64,000 bases of DNA from Chloroflexota bacterium (GCA_034437795.1 DAOTTI010000189.1:16479-80478), one strand, 5' to 3'; positions 41,786-61,723 are shown, counted from the first letter of the stretch. Notes: generated from the letters alone by a model not told the origin. Program-made: numbers and translations.

Positions 41786-41802
41786 AGATGGTATACCATC
41801 GA
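41786..41802. promoter_or_regulatory. Palindromic motif GATGGTATACCATCGAC (copy 1 of 5), upstream of the 42036 SBP gene.
   Basis: Core ATGGTATACCAT is a perfect 12-bp palindrome. Related copies at 49480-49496, 49701-49716, 55789-55805 and 61707-61723. Confidence 0.5.
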
Positions 41803-42035
41803 CGGTTCGACCGACCGCTCGCGCGGGTTCTTGCAGCGCAGTCCTCACCCTCTTCCCAGAGAGGGGATCCTGCACCCCCGGAGCATCAGCGCCACGGGAA
41901 AGTGGCTTGCCATATCAGGAACCCGGGCTGGTGGAACAGCACACTACTCCCCGCAGCTGAGGTAGGCCGGCGATGGAAGTAAGCAAGGCAATGCCGACAA
42001 TGGAAGCAATGGTCGCGACGCCATCGCAAGGCGTC

Positions 42036-43394
42036 ATGGCGCGTACTTCACGGCCGACGCGCCGTGCGGCCCTGGCCACCTTGATGGGCGCAGGCACGGC
42101 CGGCGCCGCAACCGCCATGAGCGCCTGCGCCGGGCCGGGGGCGCCCCCGCCGGGCGCCTCACGGGCCGCCAGGCCGGCGACCATCGAGGTCCTGCACGAG
42201 TTCGGGCCGAACAGCTCGGACGGGCGATGGATGGGCGAGCTACTGGAGCGCATCCGCCAGCTGGCGCCCCACCTCACAGTGAAGTCGACGGTTACCTCCG
42301 GCTCATCGTGGGACGTGCTGCAGACGATGCTGGCGGCCGGGACGGCGCCGGACGTGTCCGAGACCTATGTCGCCAACGGGGCCAGCCTAGGCGCCAAGAA
42401 GATTGCCGAACCCCTGCAGACTGCCCTCAAGTCGGCCAGGGACTGGAGCCCGAGCGACTACTTCGACGGCCCGCGCGAGGCCTTCACCTACCGCGGGGAC
42501 TTCGTCCTGGCACCGATGTTTACCGCCCCGATGGCGGTGGCGGTGAACCAGGATATGCTCAGCCGCGCTGGCCTGGCGCTGCCGTCGCCGGCCTGGACCT
42601 GGGAGACGTTCACCGATTACGCCGTGAAGCTGACCAGGCAAACCGGCGGCCAGGTGGAGGTCTACGGCGCGGCCATGCCGACCACCAACGGGTTTGGCGC
42701 GATGAACTTCTTCGGCGGCCCCCTGTGGAGCCACGGCGGCGACTGGGCCGATCGTGAGCGAGGCGTGGTCACCTTCCACCGGCCGGAAGGGGTGGCCGCG
42801 CTGGAGATGTGGGTCAGCATCGCCCTGAAGCGCCAGGCCGCTCCCACGAGCCAGCCAGCGAACTGGCAGGGCCTGTCCGGCACGCCGTTCTCGAACGGGC
42901 TGGCCGCGATGGCCTTCATCGCCAGCCCGGCCGTAAGCAATTACCTGCGGCAAGTGACGTCCTTCCCCTGGGCGACGGTACAGATGCCGCGCCAGAAGCA
43001 GCAGGGTTCCCATTTCTACGCCCATGGCTTCTTTGCCCTGCGTGCCGCCAGAGAAAAGGAGGCGGCCGTCGAGTTTGTGCGCCTGGCCAGCCTGCCCGAG
43101 CACGTCGCCCACTGGAATATCGCGTCCTTTGGCATGCCGACGCGCAAATCGGCGGCGGCGCGGAAGGAATGGCAGGACCACTTGCGCACCCAGCCCCACC
43201 TGGCTGCCTTCAACGAAAGCCTGAAATACATGCGGGGCTACCCGCCCCTGCCCGGCTGGAACGAGGCGTCCGTGGGGCCGGAAGGGATCGGCCAGGCCCT
43301 GATCGACGCCGTCCAGGGCAAGGCGGCGCCCCGCACCGCACTCGAGGAAGCGGCGCGGCGCGCCGATGCCCTTCTCGCGCAGCAGCCCAGGTAA
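42036..43394 (+). CDS. ABC transporter substrate-binding protein (family 1), Tat-like signal.
   Basis: MARTSRPTRRAALATLMGAG start, MalE-like. Confidence 0.85.
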   Translation: MARTSRPTRRAALATLMGAGTAGAATAMSACAGPGAPPPGASRAARPATIEVLHEFGPNSSDGRWMGELLERIRQLAPHLTVKSTVTSGSSWDVLQTMLAAGTAPDVSETYVANGASLGAKKIAEPLQTALKSARDWSPSDYFDGPREAFTYRGDFVLAPMFTAPMAVAVNQDMLSRAGLALPSPAWTWETFTDYAVKLTRQTGGQVEVYGAAMPTTNGFGAMNFFGGPLWSHGGDWADRERGVVTFHRPEGVAALEMWVSIALKRQAAPTSQPANWQGLSGTPFSNGLAAMAFIASPAVSNYLRQVTSFPWATVQMPRQKQQGSHFYAHGFFALRAAREKEAAVEFVRLASLPEHVAHWNIASFGMPTRKSAAARKEWQDHLRTQPHLAAFNESLKYMRGYPPLPGWNEASVGPEGIGQALIDAVQGKAAPRTALEEAARRADALLAQQPR

Positions 43395-43664
43395 GCCAGG
43401 AGAGGTGGAGCGGTGAGGGCCAGCCGACAGGCGCTGCCTGGCCGCAGCCTAATCACGGTCAACCAGATCAGCCGGGAGCAGATGAGCCAGGAGCAGCCGC
43501 TGCCGGTTCACGATCCACCAGATCTGCCAGCAGAACAGGGGGTGGCGCGGCGCCGCGACGCGAACGCCGCGGCGTTATATCCGGCGCTGCCTGGCCAGAC
43601 AACTGGCGCGGATGAACCAGCAGACGAGGACCAGCAGAAGACCAGCGGAAAGGACTGATAGAGG

Positions 43665-44705
43665 ATGCCCCGTAGTGATGGCGACCGCGTGCCCACCATT
43701 GACCAGTTCACCGGCGCGCTGCTTGGCCTGGCCATCGGCGACGCCCTGGGCCGGCCGACGGAGGGCCAGCGCCATGATGAGATCCGCGCCCAGCCCCGCG
43801 AGGCGCTGCTGACCTTCCGCGCCTATCGCGACGGCCGGCTGGGCCGGATCCTGCCGCCCGGCTCCTGGAGCGACGACACCCAGCAGGCGCTGCTCCTGGC
43901 GGACTCCCTGGTCGCCGGCCGCGGGCTGGACGCCCAGGACTTTGCCGACCGCATGTACGCCCTGTGGCGGTCCGGCGCGGCCCGTGGCTACGGGCGCGTC
44001 TACCAGCAGGCGATGGCGCGGCGCGATGCCGGCCAGCCCTGGGAGCGCGCGGCCGTCGAAGACGACGTGATGAACGGCGCCGCCATGCGCATCGCTCCCC
44101 TGGGGCTCTTCTACTGGTTCGACCCCGCCGCCCTGGCCGACGCCGCCGCCCGCTCCAGCCGCGTCACGCACCGCCACCCGTCCGCCGTCGCCGGCGCCAT
44201 CGGGGTTGCCCAGGCTTTCGCCTATGCCCTGACGCACACCGAACTCGACCCTGACGCCTTCGTCGCTGCGCTGCGCCGGCAGGTAGCGCCCGTCGATGCG
44301 GGGACGGCCGAGCACCTGGCACTGCTGCCCCGTGCGGTCCCCCTGGACCTGGATGACGCCTTCGCGCTACTCAGCCAGGTACCCGAGTTCGCCTCGCCGC
44401 CGGCTGGGGGGCGTGGCCGGGGCATCGGGGGCATGACCATCAGCCTGCTGCTGGGGGCCACTTATCTCTTCCTGCACACGGGTGGCGACTTCCGGCGGGC
44501 GGTGGAGGGGGCGATCCTGCTCGGCGGGGATACCGATGGCACGGCCGCCACCGCGGGGGCCCTGTGCGGCGCCTGGCGCGGGACGGCCACCCTGCCGGCG
44601 GAGCTGGCCGAGACGGTGGAGGAAGCGGAGCGGATCCGCGTCCTGGCGGTCTTGCTCCAGGAGCGATCGCTCTGGGCCGCGCGGTCATCGCCGGCGCTCG
44701 ACTAG
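43665..44705 (+). CDS. ADP-ribosylglycohydrolase-family protein (second copy).
   Basis: GALLGLAIGDALGRPTEG and LLGGDTDGTAATAGALCGA motifs. Confidence 0.8.
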   Translation: MPRSDGDRVPTIDQFTGALLGLAIGDALGRPTEGQRHDEIRAQPREALLTFRAYRDGRLGRILPPGSWSDDTQQALLLADSLVAGRGLDAQDFADRMYALWRSGAARGYGRVYQQAMARRDAGQPWERAAVEDDVMNGAAMRIAPLGLFYWFDPAALADAAARSSRVTHRHPSAVAGAIGVAQAFAYALTHTELDPDAFVAALRRQVAPVDAGTAEHLALLPRAVPLDLDDAFALLSQVPEFASPPAGGRGRGIGGMTISLLLGATYLFLHTGGDFRRAVEGAILLGGDTDGTAATAGALCGAWRGTATLPAELAETVEEAERIRVLAVLLQERSLWAARSSPALD

Positions 44706-44992: not shown

Positions 44993-46987
44993 CTAGACCA
45001 CGCCCGCGACCACCCGCTCCAGCAGGAAGCGGCGCGTGCCGTCGTCAAGACCATAGTCGCGGTAGTTGACGCGCAGGTTATAGAGCACGTGGCGCTCGCG
45101 CCCGCGCTCGAGCTGTGCCCACAATCGCCCAGCCTCGCCTTCTGGCAATGCGCGCGCCACCGGCCGGATGTTGCAGGACGAGCCGGCGGGAACGAAGCCG
45201 CGTGGCGCGCAGAGGTGCTGGTAGAGGCGCATATATTTACCGGTCAGGCGCCAGGGCAGGTCCGACGGCTTGCTGGCCCAGGCAGCCTGCGGCTCCTCGC
45301 CGGCGATCTGGCCTCCCTGGCCAAGGGTAAAGAAGCGCATACCGGCGGCGGTCACCACCTCCGTGCTGAAGACGATCCGTGGCAGCCGGCGCCGCACGGC
45401 GGCGAAGAAACCGGCCTCGTCCCACCGCCAGAGTAGCGAGGCGTCCACGTGCACCGCGTCGATACCGAACTCCTCGACCGTTGGCGCCAGTTGGGCCAGA
45501 TAGGCGTCGTGCCACTGGGGCGAATCGACGTCCATGCCGACAATCGGCGCCGTCCATGCTCCCGTGAATTGCACCGCGTCTGCCACCGCGTACCAGCCGC
45601 CATGCAGGTCGGGTAGCGTACCCTCCTCGCCGCCGGCGTTCGCGGGGCAGCCGAAGCACTCCACCTGAACGACGTTGACCCCCTGCCGGAACAGGAATGG
45701 AAAGGGGAAGCGGTAGCGGTCGTGGTGGCGGAACCACTGCGGGAGCGTAACCAGCGTTCGGCCGTTGAGCGTCAGGCGGATGATCCCATCCCCCACCCAC
45801 GGCAGCCCGCCAAGCGTGAGCACCGCCTGGCACGTCTGCGGCAGGGGCACCGTCTCGAAGCTCCAGCCACCGGCGGCCGGCCGCACGTTGCGGAGGGGCT
45901 CACGCCCCGTGCGGAAGTCGAGCGGGCGTGCGGGAGCGCCGCCCGGCCAGCCGACGTAGGGGCCGCACAGCCGGTCGCGCGGGTGGTGCGGCTGGGCGCG
46001 CACCGCCAGATGAGCCAGCCGGTCGAAGCCGGGCCGGTACGGATCGGCCCCCCAGGCAAGCGTATGCACCATGGCCCGGTAGCCGCCGTCATGCAGCGCG
46101 TCGATCGCCTCACGGAAGCCCGCCCGGCCGCCCAGTTCCGGCGCCGGCACGTAATCCGGATAGCCGCGGTCGTACGGCGCGCACCAGCCGGGCAGGTAGA
46201 ACAGCGCGCCGGGTGGGACCCCCAGCTCCTTGAGCTCCCGCGCCAAGTCTCGGAGGTGAGTGTACGTGTGCGCCACCTCGCCGTGCGGGCGCCATAGATC
46301 GAAGGTGAAGACGATGGGGATCTCCAGCACCCAGGCCGGCACGTCCCCCGCGGCGACCTGCTCTGCCAGCGAGCGCAGGCCGTAGGTCTGGCGTAGCCAG
46401 GCGTGGTGGCTGGCCACGGCCGCATCCATGGTCGGCCAGTATTGCACCGTCAGCGGATCCTCGGCAGCCCACTCGAAGCAGAGCAGGAAGCCGTCTCCCG
46501 TGCGCCGCACGGCCGCCGACGGCCGGCGGGGCGTGACATGCTCCAGCAGCCCGCCGCCGCCACGATCCGTCCCCACAGCCTCCAGCGGCGCTCGCGCAGC
46601 GATCTCCAGCCAGCCATCCGGGCCCAGATCCACGAGTACGAGTGGATAGGCCAGCCAGAGCAGGCCGAAGAAGTTGAGGCCCGCACGGTAGCTCTCTCCC
46701 GCCGGCATGTCACGGTCGATGCGCGTGCCGGCGTTCCAGGAGCACGGCAGGTGGATCACCGCCCGCTCGGGGAGCGGCACGTCCAGGGTGGCGCGGTCAC
46801 GCCCGCGCGGGTCATCGGGCGGCGCCTCGCGCGGCGGCAGTCGCAGGGTGAGGCCGTGCGCCCCTTCCTGCCATGCCGGCGCCTGCGAGGCGCCGCCCCG
46901 CCGCACCCGTGCCCCACGGACGACCTCCCAGATCGCTGCGGACCATGAGCGAACCCCCCGTCGCTCTCCCTTGCCGGCCTCACTCAC
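44993..46987 (-). CDS. Conserved ~660 aa protein of unknown function, possibly a TIM-barrel glycoside-hydrolase-like fold. Paralog of 61883..63765.
   Basis: Collinear similarity with the 61883 gene along the whole length (GGGG box, VFTFD.W.P.GEVAH.YTHLRDLAR.LK.LGVPPG, YLPGW, HTLAWGADP, FGVDAVHVDA.LWRWDE.GFFAA.RRRLP). 27 nt downstream of the sulfatase gene on the same strand. Confidence 0.7.
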   Translation of the reverse strand: MSEAGKGERRGVRSWSAAIWEVVRGARVRRGGASQAPAWQEGAHGLTLRLPPREAPPDDPRGRDRATLDVPLPERAVIHLPCSWNAGTRIDRDMPAGESYRAGLNFFGLLWLAYPLVLVDLGPDGWLEIAARAPLEAVGTDRGGGGLLEHVTPRRPSAAVRRTGDGFLLCFEWAAEDPLTVQYWPTMDAAVASHHAWLRQTYGLRSLAEQVAAGDVPAWVLEIPIVFTFDLWRPHGEVAHTYTHLRDLARELKELGVPPGALFYLPGWCAPYDRGYPDYVPAPELGGRAGFREAIDALHDGGYRAMVHTLAWGADPYRPGFDRLAHLAVRAQPHHPRDRLCGPYVGWPGGAPARPLDFRTGREPLRNVRPAAGGWSFETVPLPQTCQAVLTLGGLPWVGDGIIRLTLNGRTLVTLPQWFRHHDRYRFPFPFLFRQGVNVVQVECFGCPANAGGEEGTLPDLHGGWYAVADAVQFTGAWTAPIVGMDVDSPQWHDAYLAQLAPTVEEFGIDAVHVDASLLWRWDEAGFFAAVRRRLPRIVFSTEVVTAAGMRFFTLGQGGQIAGEEPQAAWASKPSDLPWRLTGKYMRLYQHLCAPRGFVPAGSSCNIRPVARALPEGEAGRLWAQLERGRERHVLYNLRVNYRDYGLDDGTRRFLLERVVAGVV

Positions 46988-47013
46988 GTCTGGCCTACCT
47001 TCTCACTCCTCGC

Positions 47014-48657
47014 TCACTCGTGGCCCTCGTTCCTCGCCAGTCGCTCCTCGCTCCGCGCTCCTTCTCCTCGCCCCGGCTGCTTGGTCACGAAGGGATGGTT
47101 GGGCGTTTGCAGGTGCTCCCGTAGCCACGGCCGCTTCTCGGCGGGCAGGCCCCCGCGCGGCCCGATCAGGTAGCGGGCGGCCCCCCACATCAGCTGCGTG
47201 TATGGATCATAGTGCTCAAACATTAACGCCCACAGCGCGTCGCGCAGGTCCTGCGCCACCTCGGCGTACGCCGGCTCATCGATCACGTTGCGCACCTCGC
47301 CCGGATCGGCCTCTAGGTCGTACAGTTCATCCCAGTCGAAGCCGTTGAAGACGTACTTGTAGCGCTGGCCAATGGCGATGCGCTGGGTGTAGAGCAGCTC
47401 GCAGCCGTAGTAGCAGTTGAGCCGGTAGGCCGGCCAGTCCGCTTCGGCCGCCTCGGGGCGCATCATCAGGGGCAGCAGGTCGCGACCGTCGGCGTGGGGC
47501 AGCGCCGGCGCCCCCGCCACGGCGGTGAAGGTATGCGCCAGGTCCTGTAGCTGGACCAGCGCGTGCGTTCGGCTCCGCGCCGGGATCACGCCCGGCCAGC
47601 GCGCCACCAGCGGGATGCGGATCGTCTCCTCGTAGGGCGTCCAGCCCTTGACCATACAGCGGTGGGCGCCCACGTTGTCCCCGTGGTCGGCGGTGAAGAC
47701 GGTCAGGGTGTTGTTCACCTGGCCCACCTCCCTGAGCGCATCAAGGACGATCCCCACCGCCGCATCCACCTGCTGGCAGTAGGCGTAGAAGTGGCGCAGC
47801 ACCTCCCGCACGTCTTCGGGCGACAGTTCCTGCCACAGGCTGGCCTCGCGCGCCAGGAGCCGCGGCTTGTTCTGAAAGGTTTCCTCCAGGTAGTTCCTGG
47901 GGATTTCCACATCCTCCGGCCGGTACTGCGCCAGGAACGTCAGCAGGGGCTTATAGGGGTCGTGGGGCTCGGGGAAGTGCACCTCAATGTGCCAGGGGCG
48001 GCCGGACGCGGCGTACTCGCGGATCAGCTGCGCCGCCGTGGTGGCAATGTGGTACTCCTGCGTCGCCTCGAACTCCCCGTCGATCTCCAGCCACAGGGTG
48101 TGCGTGTCGCCCCCGGGCCAGGTGACCGACCGGCGCCGGACCACCTCGTAGCGCCGGCGGGTGTCGCGAATGGTCGGGCCATAGCCGTCCACCCGGTTGC
48201 GCCGCGCCGCCTCCGGGGTGAGCGTAACCTGGACCGGCGCGCGGTACTCGTGGTAGCCGAAGTCCAGCGGGCCCCGCAGGCGGCTGGCGTGCCACTTGCC
48301 CACATAGCCCAGGCGGTACCCCACCTGGCGCAGGCGCTGAGAGAAGGTCTCGACGTCCGGCGCCAGATCGGGATTGAGCGACATCGGTACGTGCACCTGG
48401 TGGTAGACGCCGTTGTGCCAGGGGTAGGCCCCGGTGAGCAGGGCGGCGCGGGCGGGGCAGCAGATCGGCACCGGCGTGGAGGCGCGCTCACAGCAGAGGC
48501 CCTCCGCTACCAGCGCGTGCACGTGAGGCGTGCGGCACACCGACCGACCGGCAATCGTGTCCCAACGCATGTGGTCGCCGGTGATCAGCAGGATGTTCGG
48601 TGGCCCCGGTGGGGCAGGCGGGCCGTTCAGGCCCGACCGGTCAGCGTGGGTAGTCAT
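47014..48657 (-). CDS. Sulfatase (canonical Cys-type; CCPAR FGly motif).
   Basis: NILLITGDHMRWD N-terminus, and PICCPARAALLTG signature. Confidence 0.85.
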   Translation of the reverse strand: MTTHADRSGLNGPPAPPGPPNILLITGDHMRWDTIAGRSVCRTPHVHALVAEGLCCERASTPVPICCPARAALLTGAYPWHNGVYHQVHVPMSLNPDLAPDVETFSQRLRQVGYRLGYVGKWHASRLRGPLDFGYHEYRAPVQVTLTPEAARRNRVDGYGPTIRDTRRRYEVVRRRSVTWPGGDTHTLWLEIDGEFEATQEYHIATTAAQLIREYAASGRPWHIEVHFPEPHDPYKPLLTFLAQYRPEDVEIPRNYLEETFQNKPRLLAREASLWQELSPEDVREVLRHFYAYCQQVDAAVGIVLDALREVGQVNNTLTVFTADHGDNVGAHRCMVKGWTPYEETIRIPLVARWPGVIPARSRTHALVQLQDLAHTFTAVAGAPALPHADGRDLLPLMMRPEAAEADWPAYRLNCYYGCELLYTQRIAIGQRYKYVFNGFDWDELYDLEADPGEVRNVIDEPAYAEVAQDLRDALWALMFEHYDPYTQLMWGAARYLIGPRGGLPAEKRPWLREHLQTPNHPFVTKQPGRGEGARSEERLARNEGHE

Positions 48658-48788
48658 CAGTCTCCTCTCTGCCTGTGCAGCTTGCCGTAGCCACTGGCAT
48701 GGCCAGACGTTTGGTGCCCCTTTCGCCTGCGGGTACCGGCGTCAGATGACGGCTGGCCGCGCACGCTGCTGAGCCCAGCGGCGCGGCG

Positions 48789-49460
48789 CTACGCCCGGCC
48801 ATCAGGCGGGCGTCCGTCGGTCTGACCGTGGCTCTCGACGTCGCCGTCCCAGCCCAGCCACCGGACAAACTCGGTGTGGGGGCGCCTCGGTTTCTCCGGC
48901 AGCGTCGCCTGCGGATCGGGGTACCCCACATAGATGAAGCCGACGAGCTGCGCCTCCGGCGGCAGGCCCAGGAAGCGCTTGGCGTGCTGCGACTCTGTGC
49001 CGTTGGAGCGCCAGTAGGCGGCCAGGCCCATGGCATGGGCGGCGATGAGGATGCTCTGCATCGCGGCCGCGGTAGCCGCCAGATCCTCCCAGGGTGGCAC
49101 GTGCGGGTGAGCCCCCGGGACGGCCGCCACAACGATCACGACGGGCGCCCGCGTGAAGGAGAGCGGGACATGCTTGCGGCGCTGCGCCTCGGCCTCAGGG
49201 GTGGGCGCCGGCCAGCGCCGCAAGCCCTCGTCCATGATCACCTCACCCAGGCGCAGGCGCGCCTCACCCCGCAGGACGAAGAAGCGCCACGGCTGCGTCA
49301 GGTAGTGGTTGGGGGCATGAGTGGCCGCCTCCAGTAGCGTGTCAATCACCGCCCGGGGCGGCTCCCTGTCCGGCAGCACGTGCGGCTGGCTGCGGCGGGT
49401 GCGGATGACGTGCAGGACGGTTTCGGCGACCGTGGCGGGAAGGGCAGGTAGGGTCGTCAT
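48789..49460 (-). CDS. Nitroreductase-family protein.
   Basis: TRRS...P and RSQP-like FMN-binding N-terminus, with a nitroreductase fold. ATG at 49460. Confidence 0.7.
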   Translation of the reverse strand: MTTLPALPATVAETVLHVIRTRRSQPHVLPDREPPRAVIDTLLEAATHAPNHYLTQPWRFFVLRGEARLRLGEVIMDEGLRRWPAPTPEAEAQRRKHVPLSFTRAPVVIVVAAVPGAHPHVPPWEDLAATAAAMQSILIAAHAMGLAAYWRSNGTESQHAKRFLGLPPEAQLVGFIYVGYPDPQATLPEKPRRPHTEFVRWLGWDGDVESHGQTDGRPPDGRA

Positions 49461-49479: not shown

Positions 49480-49496
49480 GATTGTATACGATCGAC
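49480..49496. promoter_or_regulatory. Palindromic motif copy 2 (gattgtatacgatcgac), ending 20 nt upstream of the nitroreductase start on the minus strand.
   Basis: Direct reading. Confidence 0.45.
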
Positions 49497-49700
49497 GTCT
49501 CGTCGGGCGCCGCACCGGTCGAGCTGCATCCCCTGCTGCCAAGTGCCGGCATGACGCCGCCCAATGGCCCTCCCTCGGCCCCGGCCGCTCCGGCACGGTC
49601 CGCTGCAGCCACTCGCCGCGGCGGACTGCCCACGCGCCCCCACCGCTCGCTGGCCCGCCGCTCCGGTACTACCCGTTGCACTCTTGTGTCGCGGCGGCGC

Positions 49701-49716
49701 ATTGTATACCATCGAC
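49701..49716. promoter_or_regulatory. Palindromic motif copy 3 (attgtataccatcgac), in the nitroreductase / SBP divergent region.
   Basis: Direct reading. Confidence 0.45.
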
Positions 49717-51208: not shown

Positions 51209-51465
51209 GACGGGGCGACCGGTGCGCCGCCGCGGTGGCCGGCGCGGCTCGCACGGAGCGCTCCGGACACTCCTCCAGCGTGAGGCGCGGCGGCCCATGA
51301 ACCGGCGGGGGATCCCGGCCAGGCACGTCCGCTTTCGTGACGTGGGCGGCCAGAAGTCCTGTATCACCGTTGCTCGCGGTGAGGTGGCAAAGGACTGCGG
51401 GCCGCTGCTGTAGCACCACCCCGCGCGGCAACGTGAAACCGAACACGTCTGAGGGAAGGAGAGCC

Positions 51466-52683: not shown

Positions 52684-52712
52684 CGCGGACTGTTCACAGC
52701 CGGCGAGCGGTT

Positions 52713-52872
52713 CCTTCTCCCTCTGGGAGAGGGGTAGGGTCCAGTGCAGCCGGCTCTGCTGTGCCAGCAGGCTCCCTCTTCCACAGGGAGAGGGGTAGGG
52801 GCCTCAGGGCGGGGCAGACCTGGCGCGGTCCACTTTCTCTCCCAGGGGGGAGAGGGCTCAGGTAAGGGCTCT
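52713..52872. repeat. REP-like hairpin repeat cluster (three units: ccttctccctctgggagaggggtaggg; ctccctcttccacagggagaggggtaggg; ctttctctcccaggggggagagggctcaggtaaggg).
   Basis: Direct reading. Confidence 0.7.
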
Positions 52873-52953
52873 GCTGTAAATAGTCCGGGCCGGATGGGCT
52901 GGTGGCGTGGACGGGCACGGACGGAGGTTGACGGGAGTCAAGGAGAGAGCATC

Positions 52954-54258
52954 ATGAAGCGAACCGACGGCATCCTGCGCATTGGCGTGCTCGGCTGCGG
53001 ACGGATCTTCAACAGCGCCCATCGCTTCGCCTACGTGCGCACCCTGGGGCTGGGCCATCTGGTGGCGTTCTATGACCCCAACACCGAACGAGCCGAGCGG
53101 ACGTGTGCCCAGTTCCGCACCATGCTGGAGGAGGTCCTGCAGGACGGCTCACTGGCGCCGGCGCAACGGGCGGCCGCCGAGCAAAACCTGAAGGAGCTGC
53201 ACGTCTACCCCAGCAGCGCGGCGCTCCTGGAGGCCGTGGACATCGTGGACGTGTGCACCACGCCCCTGGCGCGGCTCGGCTGCGTCGTTGAAGCAGCGCA
53301 GGCGGGAGTCCACGCCATGGTGGAGAAGCCGAGCGCGCGCACCTGGCTGGAAGCAGAGCGGATGCGCGAGGTCACCGAGCGCTACGGCGTGCTCTTCCAG
53401 CTCAACGACGACAATCTCTGGGACACGCGCTATGGCCAGGTGCGCCGCCTGCTGGAGAGCGGCGCCATCGGCGCGGTGCAGACGATCTGGCTCACCCGCG
53501 GCTCGCAGCCGAACGCCACCACGGTGCTCAAGTGGCAGGCGGACGCCCGCGTCGCCGGCGGCGGGGCGGTGATGGATTACGGCTCGCACGGGATCGCCAC
53601 AGTCTGGTATCTGCTGGGGATGGAAGCGTGCGCCCGCCCCGTGCGCGTGGAGAGCCTGGGGATGGCCGTGCGCCAGCGTCAGCGCACGCTGGAAGGCGAT
53701 CCGGTGGAGATCCAGGTGGAGGACGACGCCCACCTCAAGATCCTGTTTGAGCATCCACAGACCGGCGCCTGGACCACTGTGTTCCTGGAGGCGTCCTGGT
53801 CGGGGAACGAGCTGGGCTGCGTCGAGCACCCGTACAACCAGTGGCTCCGCATCGAAGGAAGCCAGGGCATCCTCACCAGCTTCCGAGACGCGAGCGGTAA
53901 CGAGTTCTTCCGCGTCCAGCATTGGGCCCACTCCGCCATTCCGGAGCGGGCGGTCGGGAAGCAGGAAGTCTACGCGGTTGAGAAGGACGATCGCGCCAAG
54001 GCCAACTTCGACCGCGGCATCACGGACTTCATCACCCGCGTCTTGCGGCGCCAGCCGCCGCTCGCCGGCGCCGCCTTCGCCGCCGACGTGATCGCCACGG
54101 CCGGGGCGGCCTACCTGAGCAACCTGCGGGGCGGCCGTGCCGTCACGCTGGATGAATTCAAGGCCTACGCGCTGGACCTACGGGCGCGGTGCGCCGACGA
54201 GCGCGCTGCGGAGGAGGTGCTGATCAGCGAGCTCATGGCGCCGTTCCGGACCAGCTAA
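52954..54258 (+). CDS. Gfo/Idh/MocA-family oxidoreductase (second copy).
   Basis: ATG 52954 with an AAGGAGAGAG RBS. LRIGVLGCGRI Rossmann motif, and EKP region. Confidence 0.85.
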   Translation: MKRTDGILRIGVLGCGRIFNSAHRFAYVRTLGLGHLVAFYDPNTERAERTCAQFRTMLEEVLQDGSLAPAQRAAAEQNLKELHVYPSSAALLEAVDIVDVCTTPLARLGCVVEAAQAGVHAMVEKPSARTWLEAERMREVTERYGVLFQLNDDNLWDTRYGQVRRLLESGAIGAVQTIWLTRGSQPNATTVLKWQADARVAGGGAVMDYGSHGIATVWYLLGMEACARPVRVESLGMAVRQRQRTLEGDPVEIQVEDDAHLKILFEHPQTGAWTTVFLEASWSGNELGCVEHPYNQWLRIEGSQGILTSFRDASGNEFFRVQHWAHSAIPERAVGKQEVYAVEKDDRAKANFDRGITDFITRVLRRQPPLAGAAFAADVIATAGAAYLSNLRGGRAVTLDEFKAYALDLRARCADERAAEEVLISELMAPFRTS

Positions 54259-54459
54259 GCCAGGTTCACAGCGCAACGTTCACGGCGCAACGCAAGGAAG
54301 CCAGCCGGCGCCGGCCCGGCTGCGGAAAGCGATCCGGCCTGCGTCCGCCCCTACTGCACCTGTCGCGCGGTGTCGGCACGCTGCCATCTGCCGGCCCTGA
54401 GGAGCGCCCTTGAGGAGCGCCGTAGCGCCTGAGGACGAGGAATGAACGAGGAGCAACCG

Positions 54460-55398
54460 ATGAAAGTTGGGCTGTACACCATCAGTCTTTCCGGCGGCTA
54501 CTACGATGGCCCGCCGGTGCCGCTGCTGGAGATCATCCGGCAGGCACGGGACTGGGGCTACGAGGGCATCGAGCTCGAGGCCAAACGTCCCCACGGCAAC
54601 CCGATGGACCTCGACGAGCGCCAGCGCCGCGAGATCGTCCAGGAAGCGCGGCAGGCGGGGGTCGAGCTCTGCGCCGTGGCCTCCTATAACGACTTCTCCA
54701 GCCCCATCGAAGAGCACCGCCAGAACGAGCTGCTGATGGTGCGCGAGCAGATCCGGCTGGCCGCCGACCTCGGCGCGCCGCTGCTACGCGTCTTTGCCGC
54801 CTGGTCGGGGGTGACGCGACGGGACGGCAAGATCACGTATGACCTGGCCCGTTACAACATCGATCACCGCTTCCCCGGCACGACCCAGCTGGAGCGCTGG
54901 ACCTTCGTGCGTGACACGCTGGCCGAGGCCTGCCGGATCGCCGAGGCGCACGGGATCACGCTGGCGCTGCAAAATCACGAGCCGATCATCCACAGCCACG
55001 AGGACGTGCTGGACTTCATCGACGAGATCGGTTCCCCAGCGCTCAAGGTCTGCCTCGACTTTCCCATCATGAAGGATAAGTCCGACGAAGCCGTGCGCCG
55101 CGCAGTGCGCGAGGTCGGGCCGCTGATGGTGCATTCCCACTTCGGCGGCGAGTACGACGAGAGTCCGGACGGGCCGGGTGGCGTTCCCGTGCCGCGCCGC
55201 GTGGGGCGTCGCGGGCCGCCGCCGGCCAGCTATGCCACCTTCTTAGGTGAGATCAAGGCCCAGGGCTACCGTGGGTACCTCTGCTATGAGCTATGCCACC
55301 CCTGCCTGATCGGCCACCGGCACTTCGGCCTGGATGAGGCGTTCAACCAGGTCCGACGCGCCGCCCGCTTCATGCGCCATGCCATCGACCTCCCCTAG
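54460..55398 (+). CDS. Sugar phosphate isomerase/epimerase (xylose-isomerase-like TIM barrel).
   Basis: MKVGLYT start, a WGYEGIELE motif, and metal-binding His/Glu/Asp pattern. Contains a Pro/Arg-rich insertion. Confidence 0.75.
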   Translation: MKVGLYTISLSGGYYDGPPVPLLEIIRQARDWGYEGIELEAKRPHGNPMDLDERQRREIVQEARQAGVELCAVASYNDFSSPIEEHRQNELLMVREQIRLAADLGAPLLRVFAAWSGVTRRDGKITYDLARYNIDHRFPGTTQLERWTFVRDTLAEACRIAEAHGITLALQNHEPIIHSHEDVLDFIDEIGSPALKVCLDFPIMKDKSDEAVRRAVREVGPLMVHSHFGGEYDESPDGPGGVPVPRRVGRRGPPPASYATFLGEIKAQGYRGYLCYELCHPCLIGHRHFGLDEAFNQVRRAARFMRHAIDLP

Positions 55399-55788
55399 TT
55401 GCATAGGCGCTCGCCATCTCCGTCTCCGGCGCGGCGCCACGCGGCAGCAGCTCGAAGATGTCGAAACCGTGTGCCCCCAGCGACAGCCGCAGCGTCGGGC
55501 CATCAAGCCGTCTCGTCTCGCCGGGGACGTCGCGGATGTCAATGTGCAGCTAGCTGGATGCCGTCATCCTTGAAGCGGTCATCACGCCTCGCCGTCCCTG
55601 CGCCGGCGGACGAGGGCCGGCCGATGGATCTGCTCCAGCCGCCACCGGTCGGATACGCCCTTGGAACTCCCTGCGCCGGTGGACGAGGGCCGGCCGATGG
55701 ATCCCCGCTGCTGGAGCCAGCCGGCTTTCCCATCCTCAGGCGCCGCCGTTGCCGCTGCGCATCGCGGATCCCTTGACACTCATGTGCA

Positions 55789-55805
55789 GATGATATACCG
55801 TAGAC
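55789..55805. promoter_or_regulatory. Palindromic motif copy 4 (gatgatataccgtagac), 70 nt upstream of the SBP gene.
   Basis: Direct reading. Confidence 0.4.
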
Positions 55806-55873: not shown

Positions 55874-57241
55874 ATGACCCGTACCCCGACCACCAGGCGC
55901 GCCCTGATCAGCGGCGCCGTACTCCTGAGTAGCGGGCTGGCCGCCGCCTGTGGCCAGTTCGGCCAGCGGGAAGTGACCCCGCCGACCGCCCGGCGGACAC
56001 CTACCCCGCTCCTGGCCTGGGTGGGGCCGCCGGTGGACACGATCGGCCCCGGCGCAGACTTCTGGAAGACCACGGAGGCCCTGCTCAGGACCGAGCACCC
56101 CGAGATCCTGCTGGATCGTAACCGGCCGGCGATCCCCGAAAACCAGACCTTCGACGACATGCTGATCGCCAACTTTGCCGCCGGCAGTGGCCCCGACGTC
56201 TGGGAGGGGGACGTCACGCCCTGGCGCCAGGAAGTGAAGGTCAAGCTGGGCATCCCTCTCGCCCTGGAGAGCTACTACGCGCGCCTGCCTAACCTCAAGA
56301 GGATCTTCGGCTGGATGAAGGAGCAGGCCCGCATCCAGGGCAAGCTCTACGGCGTGCCCCACGAGGTGGAGTTCATTGCCGTCTTCTACAACAAGCGCGT
56401 GTTCGCCGCGGCCAACGTCAAGCCGGGCAGGACCTGGGAGGAGTTCCTCAAGACGGGCGAGACCCTCAAGGCCCAAGGTATCCAACCGCTCAACCAGCGG
56501 GCAGCGCCGAACATGGGGCACCTCTGGAGCCTGACCCTGGCAGCCATCGCCGGCCGGCAAGGGGTCGACGACATTGTGGCTGGCAAGGCGCGGTGGGACG
56601 GCACCGCCCCGGTGCTGGCCGGCGAAACGCTGGTCGATCTGCAACGGCGGGGGATCCTGCCCCGCTATGCAAGCATCGTGGGCAACCAGCCGTTCGCCGA
56701 GTTCCCGATGGGCGATTCGTTCTTCGAGGGCAAGGTCGCCCAGTGGGTTACCGGCACCTGGAGCATCGCCGGTTTCGAGAAGCAGAAAGTGGACAGAGGG
56801 GGGCTCTTCGACTACGATTTTTATGCCTTGCCCTCGCCCAACAATAGCCGCAAGCCCGAACTCGCGGGCAGCGCTGGCGGTGGCTTCTCGATCTGGGCCA
56901 AGAGTAAGGTCCCCGACGTGGCAGCCACGTTCATCGACTGGCTCTACAGCCCGCCGGTGCAGCGGGCCTGGATCGAGATCCTGTTCCAGGTGCCCCCGGT
57001 CCCCTTCAAGATTGAGGACTACAAGCTCTCTGACGGTGAACGGCGGGCGCTGGCACTGATCCACGACTACGAGAAGCTGGGGTTCGGCTGGAACGTGGAC
57101 GTGATCATGCCGGTGGAGATGCACCGCGAGTTCTGGCCCCTGCTGAGCGAGGTAATGCTCGGGAAGAAGACGCCGCGGGAGATGATGACGCGCCTCCAGC
57201 AGCTCTGGGAGACGGAGCAGGCCAAGCTCAAGGCGCGCTAA
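55874..57241 (+). CDS. ABC transporter substrate-binding protein (family 1), lipoprotein signal.
   Basis: ATG 55874 (MTRTPTTRRALISGAVLLSSGLAAAC). Confidence 0.85.
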   Translation: MTRTPTTRRALISGAVLLSSGLAAACGQFGQREVTPPTARRTPTPLLAWVGPPVDTIGPGADFWKTTEALLRTEHPEILLDRNRPAIPENQTFDDMLIANFAAGSGPDVWEGDVTPWRQEVKVKLGIPLALESYYARLPNLKRIFGWMKEQARIQGKLYGVPHEVEFIAVFYNKRVFAAANVKPGRTWEEFLKTGETLKAQGIQPLNQRAAPNMGHLWSLTLAAIAGRQGVDDIVAGKARWDGTAPVLAGETLVDLQRRGILPRYASIVGNQPFAEFPMGDSFFEGKVAQWVTGTWSIAGFEKQKVDRGGLFDYDFYALPSPNNSRKPELAGSAGGGFSIWAKSKVPDVAATFIDWLYSPPVQRAWIEILFQVPPVPFKIEDYKLSDGERRALALIHDYEKLGFGWNVDVIMPVEMHREFWPLLSEVMLGKKTPREMMTRLQQLWETEQAKLKAR

Positions 57242-57681
57242 CCGGGCGGCTGGAGCAGCTCGATCGTGATGCCGTCGGGGTCACGGAGATAGACGGCGTA
57301 GCCGCCTTTGTTCACGCCCTGCGTGATGGCTATCGGCGCGGAGACGAAGCGCACGCCCCGCTGGCGCAGGCGGGCGTGAACGGCCGGCAGGTCGTCGACC
57401 AGAAAGCAGACGTGAGCGCAGCCGGGCCGGTTGGTGGCCAGCGGCAGGGGGTCTCCCGCCTGCGTCTGGTACTGGATCAGCTCCAGGATGTGGCCATTCC
57501 CAGGGAGCGTCAGGAAGACGATACGGAAGCGCTCGCCAGGGAAGCCGGTCACCTGCGCCGGATAGTCCGCCTCCGGCTGCATGTCGGCCAGTACCGTCAG
57601 ACCGAGCAGGTCGCGGTAAAAGGCCAGCGAGCGCTCCATGTCGCCCACGGTGAAGCTGCTGTGGTGGAAGCCTCGCAGCAT
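57238..57681 (-). CDS. VOC (glyoxalase / bleomycin-resistance / dioxygenase) family protein.
   Basis: ATG at 57681 (MLRGFHHSSFTVGDMERSLAFYRDLLG). The upstream low-complexity part of ORF 57238..58101 was rejected. Confidence 0.7.
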   Translation of the reverse strand: MLRGFHHSSFTVGDMERSLAFYRDLLGLTVLADMQPEADYPAQVTGFPGERFRIVFLTLPGNGHILELIQYQTQAGDPLPLATNRPGCAHVCFLVDDLPAVHARLRQRGVRFVSAPIAITQGVNKGGYAVYLRDPDGITIELLQPPG

Positions 57682-57886
57682 GCTCCCGGTGCCCTCCCCC
57701 TCGGGGCGCGTTCGCAGCACGCTGCTGGTGCCCCCTCCCCGCAGGCGACCTCGGGGCACGGCCCCAGTGCGTCCTCGCGGGCGAGTGCGCGGCCTGGTCC
57801 CCGTGCCTCCGTCTCGTAGGTGAGCGCGCGCCACCCCTGTGGCGTCTCCTCCCTGCTGATCCGCGCGCGCCATGGTGCTGGTCCCC

Positions 57887-59956
57887 TTACCCGCTGACAA
57901 GCTGGCGTACGGCCTCGGCGATCTTCTCAGCGCTGACCAGCACCTGCTCCTCCAGGTTTGCAGCGCAGGGGATGGGCACGTCGTCGCAGGTGACGCGCAC
58001 GACCGGCGCGTCGAGATAGTCAAAGGCCTGCTCCAGGATCGTGGCCACCAGCTCCGCGGCAAAGCCACAGGTGCGGTAGCCATCGTTGGCCACCACCGCA
58101 CGATGGGTCTTCTTCACCGAGGCAGTGATGGTGTCCACGTCCAGGGGCACGAGCGTGCGCAGGTCGATCACCTCGGCGTCGATGCCCTCCCCGGCCAGCG
58201 CCGCGGCGGCCTCGACGGCGTAGTGCGCCGCCAGCCCGCTGCCGATGATGGTGACTTGGCTGCCCGGCCGCCGGATGGCTGCCTTGCCCAGGGGGATGAG
58301 GTACTCTCCTTCCGGCACCACGCCGGTGGTGGCATAGAGCAGGCGCTTCTCGAAGCAGAGCACCGGATTGCCGTCGCGGATGGCGCTCTTGATCAGCCCC
58401 TTGGCGTCGTACGGCGTGGACGGCATGATCACCTTCAGCCCCGGGATGTGCGCCACCCAGGCCTCCAGGCTCTGCGAGTGCTGCGCCGCCAGGCCGATGC
58501 CGGTGGGGACCGCGCCCCGCACCAGCATCGGCACCGCCACCTGCCCGCCGGTCATGTAGCGCAGCTTGGCGGCGTGGTTCGCCAGCTGATCCATGGCCAG
58601 GGACAGGAAGTCCATCACCTGGATCTCCACCACCGGCCGCGCGCCAGCGATGGCGGCGCCGACGCCCATCCCCGTGAAGGCCTGCTCGGAGATGGGCGTG
58701 TCGATCACCCGCGCTGGACCGAACGCCTCCAGCAGGCCCTTGGTGCAGCCGAAGAGGCCGCCGGAGGCTGCCACGTCCTCACCCAGGACAAAGACGCGCG
58801 GGTCGCGCCCCATCTCTTCCCAGAGCGCTTCGTTGATGGCCTCAGCCAGGCTCAGCGTCCGCCCTCCCGTCTGGCCTGAACCGGCGGCGGGAACGCCCGG
58901 CTCCACCGCGCGGGCCACCTCGTCGGGCGCCGGCGCGAAGACGTCGGTATGGGCCTCCTCGGGGGCGGGTCGGGGGCTGGCCAGGGCAAAGGCCACGGCC
59001 TCGCGGATCAGCGCCTCCTCCTGGGCGCGGATGGCCTGGATCTGGTCGTCGGAGAGCACGCCGGCGGCCACCAGCCGGCGGCCTAGGACGTCAATCGGAT
59101 CGCGCGCCTTCCAGGCCGCGATCTCCTCCGCCGGCCGCACCTCGCGCGTGGCGAAGGCAGAGTGGCTGTGGAAGCGGTACGTCTTGCATTCCAGGAGCGT
59201 CGGCCCTGCGCCAGCGCGAGCCCGCTCCACGGCGGCACGGGTCGCCTCATAGACCGCCAGGACGTCCTGGCCATCAACGATCGCCCCTGGCAGGCCGAAC
59301 CCTTGCGCGCGGGTGGCCACGTCCGGCACCGAGAGGGTCTGGCTGGCCGGCGTGGTCAGGGCCCACAGGTTGTTCTCGCAGATGAACACCACCGGCAGCT
59401 TGAGCACCGTAGCCAGGTTGAGCGTCTCCAGCAGCACGCCCTGGTTGGCCGCGCCGTCGCCGAAGAAGCAGAGCACGACGCGGTCCTCGCCCAGCAGCCG
59501 CGCGGCGAGGGCCGCCCCGGCCGCGATCGGGGCGTTGGCGCCGACCACGGCGTCCGCGCCGAGCAGGCCGAAGGAGGGGCAGGCGACATGCATCGAGCCG
59601 CCCTTCCCGCGGCAGTAGCCGGTGGCGCGGCCCAGGATCTCGGCCATCATGCGCCTGGGGTCGAGCCCCATGGCCAGGCCGTGCCCGTGCCCGCGATGGG
59701 GGCTGGGGACGTAATCACGGGACGTGATGGCGGCGCAGGCGCCGGCGGCGACCGCCTCCATGCCGATGTAGAGGTGGGCCGTGCCCCGGATCTCGCCCTG
59801 CTTGAACAGGTCCAGTACGCTCTGCTCAAACAGCCGGATGCGCCACAGCAAGGCGTACAGGTGGCGCAGCCGGTCGGGAGCGAGCTCCGCGGGGAGGGAG
59901 GCGGTCGGCGCCGCAGAAGTCACGGCCATGGTCAGCGTTCCTCGTCCCAGGTCCAC
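57887..59956 (-). CDS. Fused 2-oxo-acid dehydrogenase E1 component, alpha plus beta subunits (TPP-dependent, acetoin/pyruvate dehydrogenase E1-like).
   Basis: N-terminal alpha part with the GDGAANQG TPP motif. C-terminal beta / transketolase-like part (DTPISEQAFTGMGVGAA). 689 aa in a single ORF. Confidence 0.8.
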   Translation of the reverse strand: MDLGRGTLTMAVTSAAPTASLPAELAPDRLRHLYALLWRIRLFEQSVLDLFKQGEIRGTAHLYIGMEAVAAGACAAITSRDYVPSPHRGHGHGLAMGLDPRRMMAEILGRATGYCRGKGGSMHVACPSFGLLGADAVVGANAPIAAGAALAARLLGEDRVVLCFFGDGAANQGVLLETLNLATVLKLPVVFICENNLWALTTPASQTLSVPDVATRAQGFGLPGAIVDGQDVLAVYEATRAAVERARAGAGPTLLECKTYRFHSHSAFATREVRPAEEIAAWKARDPIDVLGRRLVAAGVLSDDQIQAIRAQEEALIREAVAFALASPRPAPEEAHTDVFAPAPDEVARAVEPGVPAAGSGQTGGRTLSLAEAINEALWEEMGRDPRVFVLGEDVAASGGLFGCTKGLLEAFGPARVIDTPISEQAFTGMGVGAAIAGARPVVEIQVMDFLSLAMDQLANHAAKLRYMTGGQVAVPMLVRGAVPTGIGLAAQHSQSLEAWVAHIPGLKVIMPSTPYDAKGLIKSAIRDGNPVLCFEKRLLYATTGVVPEGEYLIPLGKAAIRRPGSQVTIIGSGLAAHYAVEAAAALAGEGIDAEVIDLRTLVPLDVDTITASVKKTHRAVVANDGYRTCGFAAELVATILEQAFDYLDAPVVRVTCDDVPIPCAANLEEQVLVSAEKIAEAVRQLVSG

Positions 59957-60699
59957 CAGGCCCCCGGCGGCAGGACGACCGGCTTCACCGTGGCGCGGCC
60001 GTCGGCCTGCATCTGCGCCAGGAGCGACGTAAACTGGCGCACCTCGTCACAGTGCACGTCCAGGAAATGGCAGGGGATGGCCACGTCCAGCCCGAGCCAC
60101 TGGCAGGCCAGGGCCGCTTCGTAGGGGGTCAGTTCACCGGTGACCACCCGCGCGTCGCCGGCGGCGATGACATCGGGCAGCGCCACATGCACCAGGCCGA
60201 TGTTCGGCCGGTAGAGCTCGCCGATCAGGCGTAGGTCGCTGAACAGGGCCGTGTCGCCCAGGTGGTAGATGCGTGTGCGCTCGTCGACGGAGACGATAAA
60301 GCCCATCGGCAAGCCGGTGGCCCAGCGCCCGTCGGGCAGGCGCACGCGAGACGTGTGGCGCGTCTCCACCGGCCGCACCCGCAGGCCGCGGAACTCCACC
60401 ACCATCCCCCAGGCCAGCTGGAGCACCTGCTCGGGCGGGAGGCCGCCCAGGGTCAGCGCCTCCTTCACTTCCGGTCCGCACACCACCGGCGCCCCGTCGC
60501 GGGCGGCGATCGTTGCCGCATCGCCCAGGTGGTCCCACGCCCCGTGGGTGACCAGCACCAGGTCGGCGCGCTCCAGGTCGCGGACCTTCACCGGGCTGGC
60601 CGGGTTCTCGTCGAGAAACGGGTCGATCAGCACACGCAGCCCCTGCGGTGTGACGATCTCGAACGCGGCGGCGCCAAAGAACCTCAGGTGAGTCGCCAT
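59932..60699 (-). CDS. MBL-fold metallo-hydrolase (UlaG / lactonase-like).
   Basis: VTHGAWDHLGD HxHxDH-type motif. 25-nt overlap with the downstream E1 gene. Confidence 0.75.
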   Translation of the reverse strand: MATHLRFFGAAAFEIVTPQGLRVLIDPFLDENPASPVKVRDLERADLVLVTHGAWDHLGDAATIAARDGAPVVCGPEVKEALTLGGLPPEQVLQLAWGMVVEFRGLRVRPVETRHTSRVRLPDGRWATGLPMGFIVSVDERTRIYHLGDTALFSDLRLIGELYRPNIGLVHVALPDVIAAGDARVVTGELTPYEAALACQWLGLDVAIPCHFLDVHCDEVRQFTSLLAQMQADGRATVKPVVLPPGAWWTWDEER

Positions 60700-60790
60700 C
60701 TTGCTCCCTCGCCGTCCTCATCTGGTGCCCGCGTGGTGCAGACCCCGCCATTGCCCTCTCGGGCCAGCCCCTCTCTCACTCCCTCACCGG

Positions 60791-61690
60791 CTACTGCGCC
60801 ACATGCCCGCCATCGACGTTGAGCGTGACCCCGGTGACCATGCTGGCGGCGTCCGAGGCCAGAAAGACGACGGGGCCGACGATCTCGTGCGGCTCACCCA
60901 GCCGGCCCAGCGGGATATTGCGCAGGAAATAGGCGCGGATCTCCGCATGCTGCAGGCTGCGCTCGATCAGGGGTGTCCGGAAGTGGGTGGGGGCGATGGC
61001 GTTCACCAGGATGCCGTGCCTGGCCCACTCAACGGCCAGTGTCCGTGTCAGGGCAACGAGGCCGCCCTTGGCCGCGGCATAGTTGGCGTTGCCGGTAGTG
61101 ACCCCGACCTGCGCCGCGATGGAGGCGATGTTGATGATCCGCCCGCCGCCCTGGCGGATCATGGCCCGCCCCGCCGCCTGCGCGCACAGGAAGGCGCCCT
61201 TGAGATCGACGGCCAGGACCTCGTCCCACTGCGCTTCGGTCATCTCCTCCGCCGGCGCGCGCCGGCCGATACCGGCATTGTTCACCAGGATGTCGATCCG
61301 CCCGAAGGTCTCCACCGCCCGCTGGACCATCGCCGCCACCTGGTCGGCGCGGCTGACGTCGCAGCGGACGGCCAGGGCGCGCCGCCCCACCTGGTGCACG
61401 TAGGCCGCCACCGGCTGCAGGCCGGCCTCATTGATGTCTACCAGCACGACATCGGCGCCAAACGTGGCCAGCCCGCAGGCGATGGCCTCACCCAGGCCGG
61501 ACGCCGCGCCGGTGACGATGGCCACGCGGTCCGTCAGGTCAAACAGGGCGCGCGTAATCCGCCGCGTGTCACAGCGGAGGCCGGTACCGGCCTCCGGCGC
61601 AATGCTGCGGCTGGGCGCCGTCGCCGGGGTCGCCGCCGGTCCAGCCACGGCCGCCGGTGCCGCCGGTGCAGTGTGAGAGTCGGTCGCCAT
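60791..61690 (-). CDS. SDR-family oxidoreductase (KduD / gluconate 5-dehydrogenase-like) with a ~40 aa Ala/Pro-rich N-terminal extension.
   Basis: VAIVTGAASGLG, NNAG, and YAAAKGG motifs. Confidence 0.8.
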   Translation of the reverse strand: MATDSHTAPAAPAAVAGPAATPATAPSRSIAPEAGTGLRCDTRRITRALFDLTDRVAIVTGAASGLGEAIACGLATFGADVVLVDINEAGLQPVAAYVHQVGRRALAVRCDVSRADQVAAMVQRAVETFGRIDILVNNAGIGRRAPAEEMTEAQWDEVLAVDLKGAFLCAQAAGRAMIRQGGGRIINIASIAAQVGVTTGNANYAAAKGGLVALTRTLAVEWARHGILVNAIAPTHFRTPLIERSLQHAEIRAYFLRNIPLGRLGEPHEIVGPVVFLASDAASMVTGVTLNVDGGHVAQ

Positions 61691-61706
61691 CAGGCCCTTG
61701 TCCTCT

Positions 61707-61723
61707 GATTGTATACCATCGAC
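61707..61723. promoter_or_regulatory. Palindromic motif copy 5 (gattgtataccatcgac), ending 17 nt upstream of the SDR start codon on the minus strand.
   Basis: Direct reading. On the coding strand the context is GTCGATGGTATACAATCAGAGGACAAGGGCCTG-ATG. Confidence 0.45.

Follow-up and report, generated by a model that had tools for sequence, protein, structure and literature searches.

A conserved operator motif of the GntR/FadR class predicted to define a local regulon in an uncultured Chloroflexota bacterium

This study concerns a recurring palindromic motif of 14-20 bp, GATKGTATACMATCGAC, in a stretch of 64,000 nucleotides from a Chloroflexota bacterium (GCA_034437795.1, DAOTTI010000189.1:16479-80478; the whole stretch is called the window below). 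Five copies of the motif, S1 to S5, start at 41787, 49480, 49700, 55789 and 61707 and stand before genes for solute-binding proteins (SBPs), a nitroreductase and an SDR protein. Judged from the DNA itself, this motif appears to be a real and conserved operator of the GntR/FadR class, which would define a local regulon in this uncultured bacterium. With a probability of roughly 0.62, we consider it to be the operator of one factor, most likely a regulator of the FadR subfamily (a GntR winged helix-turn-helix domain plus an FCD domain) encoded outside the approximately 90 kb examined. A sequence-only reading of the same window had described the motif as operator-like, and this description has held up in view of both the conservation of the sites in relatives and their non-random placement.

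A pattern search of the 64-kb window with GATGGTATACCATCGAC, allowing up to 3 mismatches, gives five matches on the + strand plus the palindromic self-match of S1, while dinucleotide-preserving shuffles used as controls (n=100) give 0.08 matches on average and 0 of 100 reach 6. The search agrees with the coordinates reported earlier for the copies, save that S1 starts at 41787 and not at 41786, and the dyad of this copy, GATGGTA·TACCATC (the dot marks the centre), is perfect over 14 bp rather than the 12 bp first described. With a weight matrix derived from the five sites, these score 31-34 bits and the rest of the window never exceeds 12 bits. The window has a G+C content of 69.4% and holds five GTATAC hexamers, four of them within copies of the motif. 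Our gene map also confirms that all five copies are intergenic and in promoter regions, each 5' of the first gene in a transcription unit. Since the intergenic fraction of the region from 35.6 to 63.8 kb is only about 13%, the chance of finding 5 of 5 copies there is about 4e-5. A further weak match at 35010 (GATTGTGTCCCATC) falls inside a transposase remnant and was rejected as chance.

The consensus of 12 aligned sites is ncgGATtGTATACcATCGaCcg, with an information content of about 27-29 bits and a symmetric core of GAT-K-GTA·TAC-M-ATC. The boxes of the window sites read TGGT-AT-ACCA, TTGT-AT-ACCA (twice), TTGT-AT-ACGA and TGAT-AT-ACCG, and the GT-to-AC spacing is 2 nt at all sites (GTATAC or GTAGAC). 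Two sites elsewhere, in the related locus L124 and in the actinomycete locus L105 (both described below), show a complete half-site of about 10 bp, G-(T/G/C)-CGAT-n-GTA. The TCGAC tail, which had been singled out as part of the best-conserved half-site, is indeed conserved, and the palindrome in L124 indicates that it forms the outer part of one such half-site.

Read by sequence, the sites adjoin or share bases with plausible -10 or -35 hexamers. The sequence-only reading had noticed that in two cases the motif ends about 20 nt before the ATG and might overlap a -10 element; the measured distances are 19 nt at the nitroreductase gene (S2) and 16 nt at the SDR gene (S5), and a possible -10 element, TACAAT, does lie on the - strand inside both sites (49486-49481 in S2; 61713-61708 in S5, with TGGAAT 17 nt upstream). 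With this hexamer at 23-26 nt from the ATG, the leaders would be short. At S3 the candidate promoter consists of TTGTGT (49684-49689), a 17-nt spacer and TACCAT (49707-49712), and at S4 of a perfect TTGACA (55773-55778), 17 nt, and then TACCGT (55796-55801) within the site. S2 and S3 are 220 bp apart in one divergent intergenic region. Candidate promoters are also seen in the related locus L216, as GTGACA-18-TACAAT at its SDR site and as TTGATT-17-TACAAT at its position 5979, where the palindrome is positioned between the two hexamers. A second box (cATACAATC) that follows the two sites found outside the window was considered as an extra half-site and dropped, because its register fits a -10 hexamer better, as in this last arrangement in L216. 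The sites, together with the genes and predicted regulated units around them, are listed in Table 1.

Table 1. Motif copies, genes and predicted regulated units in the window
Feature	Position	Strand	Remarks
S1	41787-41803		GATGGTATACCATCGAC; 0 mismatches; 169-232 nt upstream of SBP2 start (ATG 41973 or 42036)
S2	49480-49496		GATTGTATACGATCGAC; - strand reading GTCGATCGTATACAATC; 2 mismatches; before nitroreductase ATG 49460
S3	49700-49716		CATTGTATACCATCGAC; 2 mismatches; 140 nt upstream of SBP3 ATG 49856
S4	55789-55805		GATGATATACCGTAGAC; weakest copy, 3 mismatches; 69 nt upstream of SBP4 ATG 55874
S5	61707-61723		GATTGTATACCATCGAC; - strand reading GTCGATGGTATACAATC; 1 mismatch; before SDR ATG 61690
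CG-centred LacI-type palindrome	38239-38256		AACCTTTGCGCAAACCTT; between LacI start (38196, -) and SBP1 start (38296, +); not of the motif family
ARH-like protein	35648-37090	-	
LacI-family regulator	37156-38196	-	
SBP1	38296-39699	+	
Sulfatase	about 39865-41332	+	
SBP2	41973-43394	+	solute-binding lipoprotein
ARH-like protein	43665-44705	+	ADP-ribosylglycohydrolase family
DUF6259 protein	44993-46987	-	
Sulfatase	47014-48657	-	
Nitroreductase	48789-49460	-	
SBP3	49856-51208	+	
Enolase-superfamily protein	to 52683	+	
Gfo/Idh/MocA oxidoreductase	to 54258	+	
Xylose-isomerase-like TIM-barrel protein	54442-55398	+	
SBP4	55874-57241	+	
Glyoxalase/VOC protein	57238-57681	-	
E1	57887-59929	-	fused E1 alpha/beta thiamine pyrophosphate (TPP)-dependent dehydrogenase
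Metallo-beta-lactamase-fold hydrolase	59932-60699	-	
SDR	60791-61690	-	
DUF6259 protein	61883-63766	-	final gene of an SBP-SBP-DUF6259 unit; the site of this unit, AATTGTAGACAATC, is outside the window
Predicted regulated unit 1	41973-44705	+	SBP2, ARH-like gene (270 nt downstream, possibly a separate transcript)
Predicted regulated unit 2	44993-49460	-	nitroreductase, sulfatase, DUF6259 protein
Predicted regulated unit 3	49856-55398	+	SBP3, enolase-superfamily, Gfo/Idh/MocA, xylose-isomerase-like TIM-barrel
Predicted regulated unit 4	55874-57241	+	SBP4
Predicted regulated unit 5	57238-61690	-	SDR, metallo-beta-lactamase-fold hydrolase, fused E1, glyoxalase/VOC
SBP_bac_1 genes	186-1718, ~32900-34112, 38296-39699, 41973-43394, 49856-51208, 55874-57241		others in L208 and L122/L123, beyond both ends

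Among relatives of the locus, which were reached via homologues of the E1 and SDR proteins, the closer ones retain the site. Upstream of the SDR gene, GTCGATGGTATACAATC stands 16 nt before the ATG in the window and 17 nt before it in L216 (SDR 93% identical), GTCGATAGTATACTATC stands 22 nt before the ATG in L215 (87% identical), and GTCGATTGTATACTGCC stands 24 nt before a GTG start in L127 (77% identical). The L215 site is a perfect palindrome of 14 bp. Alignment of the window, L215 and L127 reveals that GTCGATnGTATAC is the sole conserved block of an otherwise diverged intergenic region. L216 has a GH36 gene upstream of the SDR site where the window has a DUF6259 gene, yet the site is kept, so it moves together with the promoter. 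The SDR promoter of L124 (E1 82% identical) is lost at the contig end, and a near-perfect palindrome of 24 bp, ttGGCGATGGTATACCGTCGCCaa, is found 40 nt before a zinc-dependent alcohol dehydrogenase gene adjoining the orthologous operon. The same dehydrogenase gene, followed by a sulfatase gene, is divergent from the SDR gene in L127, with the site in between. Our alignments also show that a site between sulfatase and GH36 genes is conserved between L123 and L216.

The same locus was found on three metagenome contigs, and the E1 protein has its closest named relatives in metagenome-assembled genomes of Chloroflexota. Beyond the right end of the window, a 78-kb ENA contig carries two SBP genes, a GH36 gene, a sulfatase gene, another SBP gene and another sulfatase gene. 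A degenerate search of the extended contig with GATKGTAKAYMATC, allowing up to 2 mismatches, identifies GATTGTAGACAATC between the sulfatase and GH36 genes, and the second outside site, AATTGTAGACAATC, lies 45 nt before the SBP-SBP-DUF6259 unit, at about window-equivalent 66544-66557. Both run in the strand orientation opposite to that of the five window sites, so the shared orientation within the window carries no meaning. About 7 sites are thus available for about 7 transcription units in one uninterrupted island that begins at 41.8 kb and reaches about window-equivalent 71 kb, and no motif site is present in the 17 kb left of the window. As a separate observation, a leader of about 250 nt on the 3' side of the operator is conserved between L123 (4800-5048) and L216 (6000-6560), upstream of GH36 or SBP-GH36 genes. 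This leader, possibly a cis-regulatory RNA or a small open reading frame (ORF), has as conserved blocks GTGGCCATGAsCGGGCCAAG (duplicated in L216), GCCCTGGCCCGAACC and GCAAACCGyGGCyGTTGG, none of which is present in the window.

The assignment to the GntR family, which the sequence-only reading had raised as a resemblance, gains support from the conservation in relatives, from the FadR-subfamily consensus and from regulator genes found beside an identical 16-mer in other genomes. Binding sites of the FadR subfamily have been described as A/T-rich palindromes with TKGT/ACMA boxes, in which the GT-to-AC spacing is usually 3 nt, and 2 nt in the GntR, HpxS, HypR, MdcY and PrpR groups, whereas HutC sites have 4 nt (Suvorova et al. 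2015, PMC4494728). The sites in the window have this form, TKGT-AT-ACMA with an A/T-rich centre, and their 2-nt spacing matches that of the GntR, HpxS, HypR, MdcY and PrpR groups. They are also placed as FadR-type sites are, 5' of operons, and are conserved in L216, L215, L127 and L124. Predicted FadR-type sites with the same core have been listed, for example AGTTGGTATACCAATA and CAGGTTGTATACAACCCG (PMC4494728 supplement); Chloroflexi contributed just six FadR-type regulators to that study (PMC4494728). A scan of genome contigs for the exact 16-mer ATKGTATACSATCGAC returned at least 118 loci in all phyla, mostly random matches, and the flanking genes of ten high-GC loci among them show no common theme. 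A FadR-like helix-turn-helix domain was found by tblastn in only 3 of the 118 loci listed, and all three have a GntR+FCD gene (Pfam) beside the motif, which is placed in a promoter region there. In L071 (Pararhizobium) the motif lies 85 nt upstream of the GntR+FCD regulator gene, in L105 (an actinomycete metagenome-assembled genome) a 20-bp near-palindrome, GCCGATTGTATACGATCGAC, lies upstream of a permease-gntR operon, and in L042 (Ruegeria) the motif lies 41 nt before an operon following gntR-DUF1330. By a rough estimate, 0.1-0.3 GntR-adjacent motifs would be expected by chance among the 118 listed loci.

Several results weigh against a FadR-type operator. Pfam scans of essentially all plausible ORFs and tblastn searches with FadR-type helix-turn-helix domains detect no GntR-family gene in the window, as the sequence-only reading had stated, nor in the 17 kb to its left, the 10 kb to its right or the contigs of relatives; most FadR-type regulators adjoin their targets and autoregulate, a pattern not seen here. 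Because the regulator itself was not found, we infer the GntR assignment from its sites, and the association with GntR genes comes from 3 of 118 listed loci with a rough chance estimate. The sites are also asymmetric in a systematic way, since nearly all of them have ATCG after one arm and lack its mirror image on the other. At S1, S3, S4 and both outside sites this tail is directed at the gene, whereas at S2 and S5 it faces the opposite way, so the asymmetry is independent of the direction of transcription; the protein that binds here could be something other than a standard symmetric FadR-type dimer. The site in L127 retains only one of its halves. Both motif and gene order are absent from E1 relatives at 69-71% identity (L125, L126) and from SDR relatives at 70-73% (L210-L214), and a metagenome scan with the E1 protein gave only relatives at 38-62% identity, none of them with the motif. 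Since relatives at or below 73% identity are without it, conservation is seen in a narrow clade only. Finally, the promoter overlap is a looser reading that we infer, because a strict sigma-70 consensus scan called no promoters at the sites and Chloroflexota promoters are poorly known.

Other explanations for the motif have been weighed against these data. In about 90 kb, no transcription factor gene was found other than that of the LacI-family regulator, which the sequence-only reading had named as the only local candidate, and it could be argued that the motif, GATGGTATACCATC, is its operator and that this protein controls the whole island, as LacI regulators commonly control sugar-uptake loci and a minority of them (49 of 1303) recognize sites with a non-CG centre (PMC4052901). 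The gene is real and no other regulator was found in the window, but we find it very improbable that its product is the binder. The centre of the motif is GTA·TAC, not the central CG found for 1173 of 1303 LacI regulators, more than three quarters of the local regulators of this family are autoregulated (PMC4052901), and the motif is absent from the divergent promoter region between the LacI and SBP1 genes (38197-38295), where another palindrome is found, the CG-centred AACCTTTGCGCAAACCTT, which has TTTGC·GCAAA as its core and whose sequence is unique in the window. The core of the motif fits the GntR/FadR consensus instead. AACCTTTGCGCAAACCTT is the likely operator of the local LacI regulator, and there seem to be two regulons in the window, one predicted for LacI (the lacI-ARH and SBP1-sulfatase genes) and one for the motif (everything downstream). 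It is unlikely, too, that the motif serves a dimeric regulator of another family sharing the GTATAC core, such as a HutC-subfamily GntR, TetR, MarR or IclR protein. Short A/T-rich palindromes do recur in several regulator families, no regulator was identified in the stretch examined, and the outer CGAT/ATCG positions and the asymmetry are absent from the generic FadR consensus. The 2-nt spacing and TKGT/ACMA boxes are nonetheless of the FadR type and differ from the 4 nt of HutC sites (PMC4494728), and the identical 16-mer stands beside GntR+FCD genes in three unrelated genomes from other phyla.

The motif might also be a promoter element itself, either an unusual extended -10 or the recognition sequence of an alternative sigma factor, given that every copy has a TAnnnT hexamer (TACCAT, TACAAT or TACCGT), that the block conserved at the SDR promoter, GTCGATnGTATAC, is asymmetric and that the motif ends so close to the ATG at two genes. 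This is highly improbable, as the dyad symmetry reaches 14-24 bp, the motif occurs in both orientations relative to genes and at 16 to about 260 nt from the start codon, a separate TACAAT or TACGAT hexamer follows the palindrome at L216 5979 and at the L123 sites, and about 27 bits in a motif confined to one island is far above a -10 element. Remnants of insertion sequences in the window (27491-28517 and about 34.4-35.5 kb) could suggest that the copies are relics of a repeat or mobile element, if not chance matches or a structured RNA element, but we give hardly any credence to this. The shuffled controls argue against chance; similarity between the copies does not extend into their flanks beyond about 20 bp, so they are not a repeat element; the sites are conserved in relatives where their surroundings have diverged; and there is no Rfam match in the window, while the folds of the sites are no more stable than those of shuffled sequence (z from -0.8 to +1.3).

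If the motif is a FadR-type operator, a dimer would bind the palindrome (G-T/G-C)GAT-K-GTA·TAC-M-ATC(G-A/C-C), one half-site usually being near consensus and the other degenerate. Given the position of the sites at plausible -10 or -35 hexamers, the regulator would be expected to repress by excluding RNA polymerase, and S2 and S3 would each serve one arm of a divergent operon pair. Release of the repressor would probably be brought about by a pathway intermediate, presumably an acidic sugar derivative, as is usual for the subfamily. FadR-type regulators usually sense carboxylates (PMC4494728), and such an effector would fit the enolase-superfamily and SDR enzymes.

The gene map is based on Pfam scans of plausible ORFs and on gene calls on identical metagenome contigs, with start codons picked from ribosome-binding sites and signal peptides. 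Enzyme naming via NCBIfam gave generic names only, to which no specific pathway could be assigned. Several features of the genes deserve a description. The SDR protein carries an Ala/Pro-rich N-terminal extension of about 40 residues (61561-61690, - strand) that is common only to its closest relatives (93% identity); other SDR homologues begin near residue 43, where the window gene has no alternative start codon. E1 has its alpha and beta parts in one polypeptide, with no E2 or E3 gene nearby, and its operon with the SDR, metallo-beta-lactamase-fold hydrolase and VOC genes is conserved in Chloroflexota; Bathyarchaeia have homologues of about 50% identity. At least 10 SBP_bac_1 genes are present in about 90 kb. 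Each has a lipobox cysteine and a twin-arginine motif, as in MTRRRALTAGVAGVSGAAIAAC, and the ORFs scanned there yielded neither ABC permease nor ATPase genes; orphan binding proteins in such numbers are unusual. A DDE_5 transposase is split across two frames (27491-28303 and 27954-28517), and in the region of about 34400-35500 the ORF 35130-35459 resembles a transposase C-terminus and is without a Pfam match; both regions look like decayed insertion sequences flanking the left border of the sugar island. Further to the left, an ORF of about 820-830 codons (30297-32789, - strand) has a third-position G+C of 0.85 and no Pfam match, and overlaps a long upstream extension of a + strand SBP ORF (31650-34112). 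Two DUF5069 paralogues (15803-16294 and 21659-22150) flank a small lipid-like cluster (18801-21658) with ketoacyl synthase, methyltransferase and MaoC dehydratase genes.

The island contains genes for lipoprotein solute-binding proteins, sulfatases, a GH36 glycosidase, DUF6259 proteins, an enolase-superfamily enzyme, oxidoreductases and the TPP-dependent E1-like enzyme. The motif would offer a testable regulon map for an uncultured Chloroflexota lineage, with about 7 transcription units and about 25 genes that are apparently co-regulated, among them those for sulfatases, the many orphan solute-binding proteins, DUF6259 proteins and the unusual fused E1. Such co-regulation would join genes without an assigned function into one pathway, probably for the breakdown of sulfated sugars or glycans, and the motif could be used as a probe for the regulator and for the remaining members of the regulon in the full genome. 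It is tempting, although rather doubtful, to speculate that the island represents a system of Chloroflexota for the use of sulfated glycans that has not been described before and is controlled by a single distant master regulator via an unusually long and intrinsically asymmetric operator.

The arrangement described here can be compared with several known systems. The GntR operator of B. subtilis is a palindrome with a TTGTATACAA core, from which gluconate releases the repressor, and there the regulator gene is the first gene of a single gnt operon; a literature search on TTGTATACAA and GntR returned nothing relevant. The FadR groups of Suvorova et al., and also the predicted Arth_3541 and Bpet4349 sites, have in common with our motif the TKGT/ACMA boxes, the A/T centre and the 2-nt spacing, and the divergent operon pairs of the subfamily that have a separate site for each operon (PMC4494728) are similar to S2 and S3. 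In contrast to those regulons, which were built around a co-localised and usually autoregulated regulator gene, the regulator here would be unlinked. The UxuR/ExuR proteins of E. coli, which belong to the FadR subfamily of the GntR family, use a palindrome bound by a dimer to control sugar-acid catabolic genes (the hexuronate regulon). The UxuR operator, AAATTGGTATACCAATTT (PMC8092373), and S1 have an identical 10-bp core, TGGTATACCA, and an engineered hybrid promoter with the UxuR site between -35 and -10 (PMC8092373) resembles the arrangement that may exist at L216 5979 and L123 4771. The two differ in their outer arms, AAAT/ATTT in E. coli UxuR versus (GTC)GA/TC(GAC) here, in the regulator gene, which lies within the regulon in E. 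coli and is not found nearby here, and in the genes regulated, since the sulfatases, the many solute-binding proteins and the E1-like enzyme are not uxu/exu genes. GntR-type operators with this core are already well documented, and the motif would most likely belong to an ordinary kind of bacterial gene switch.

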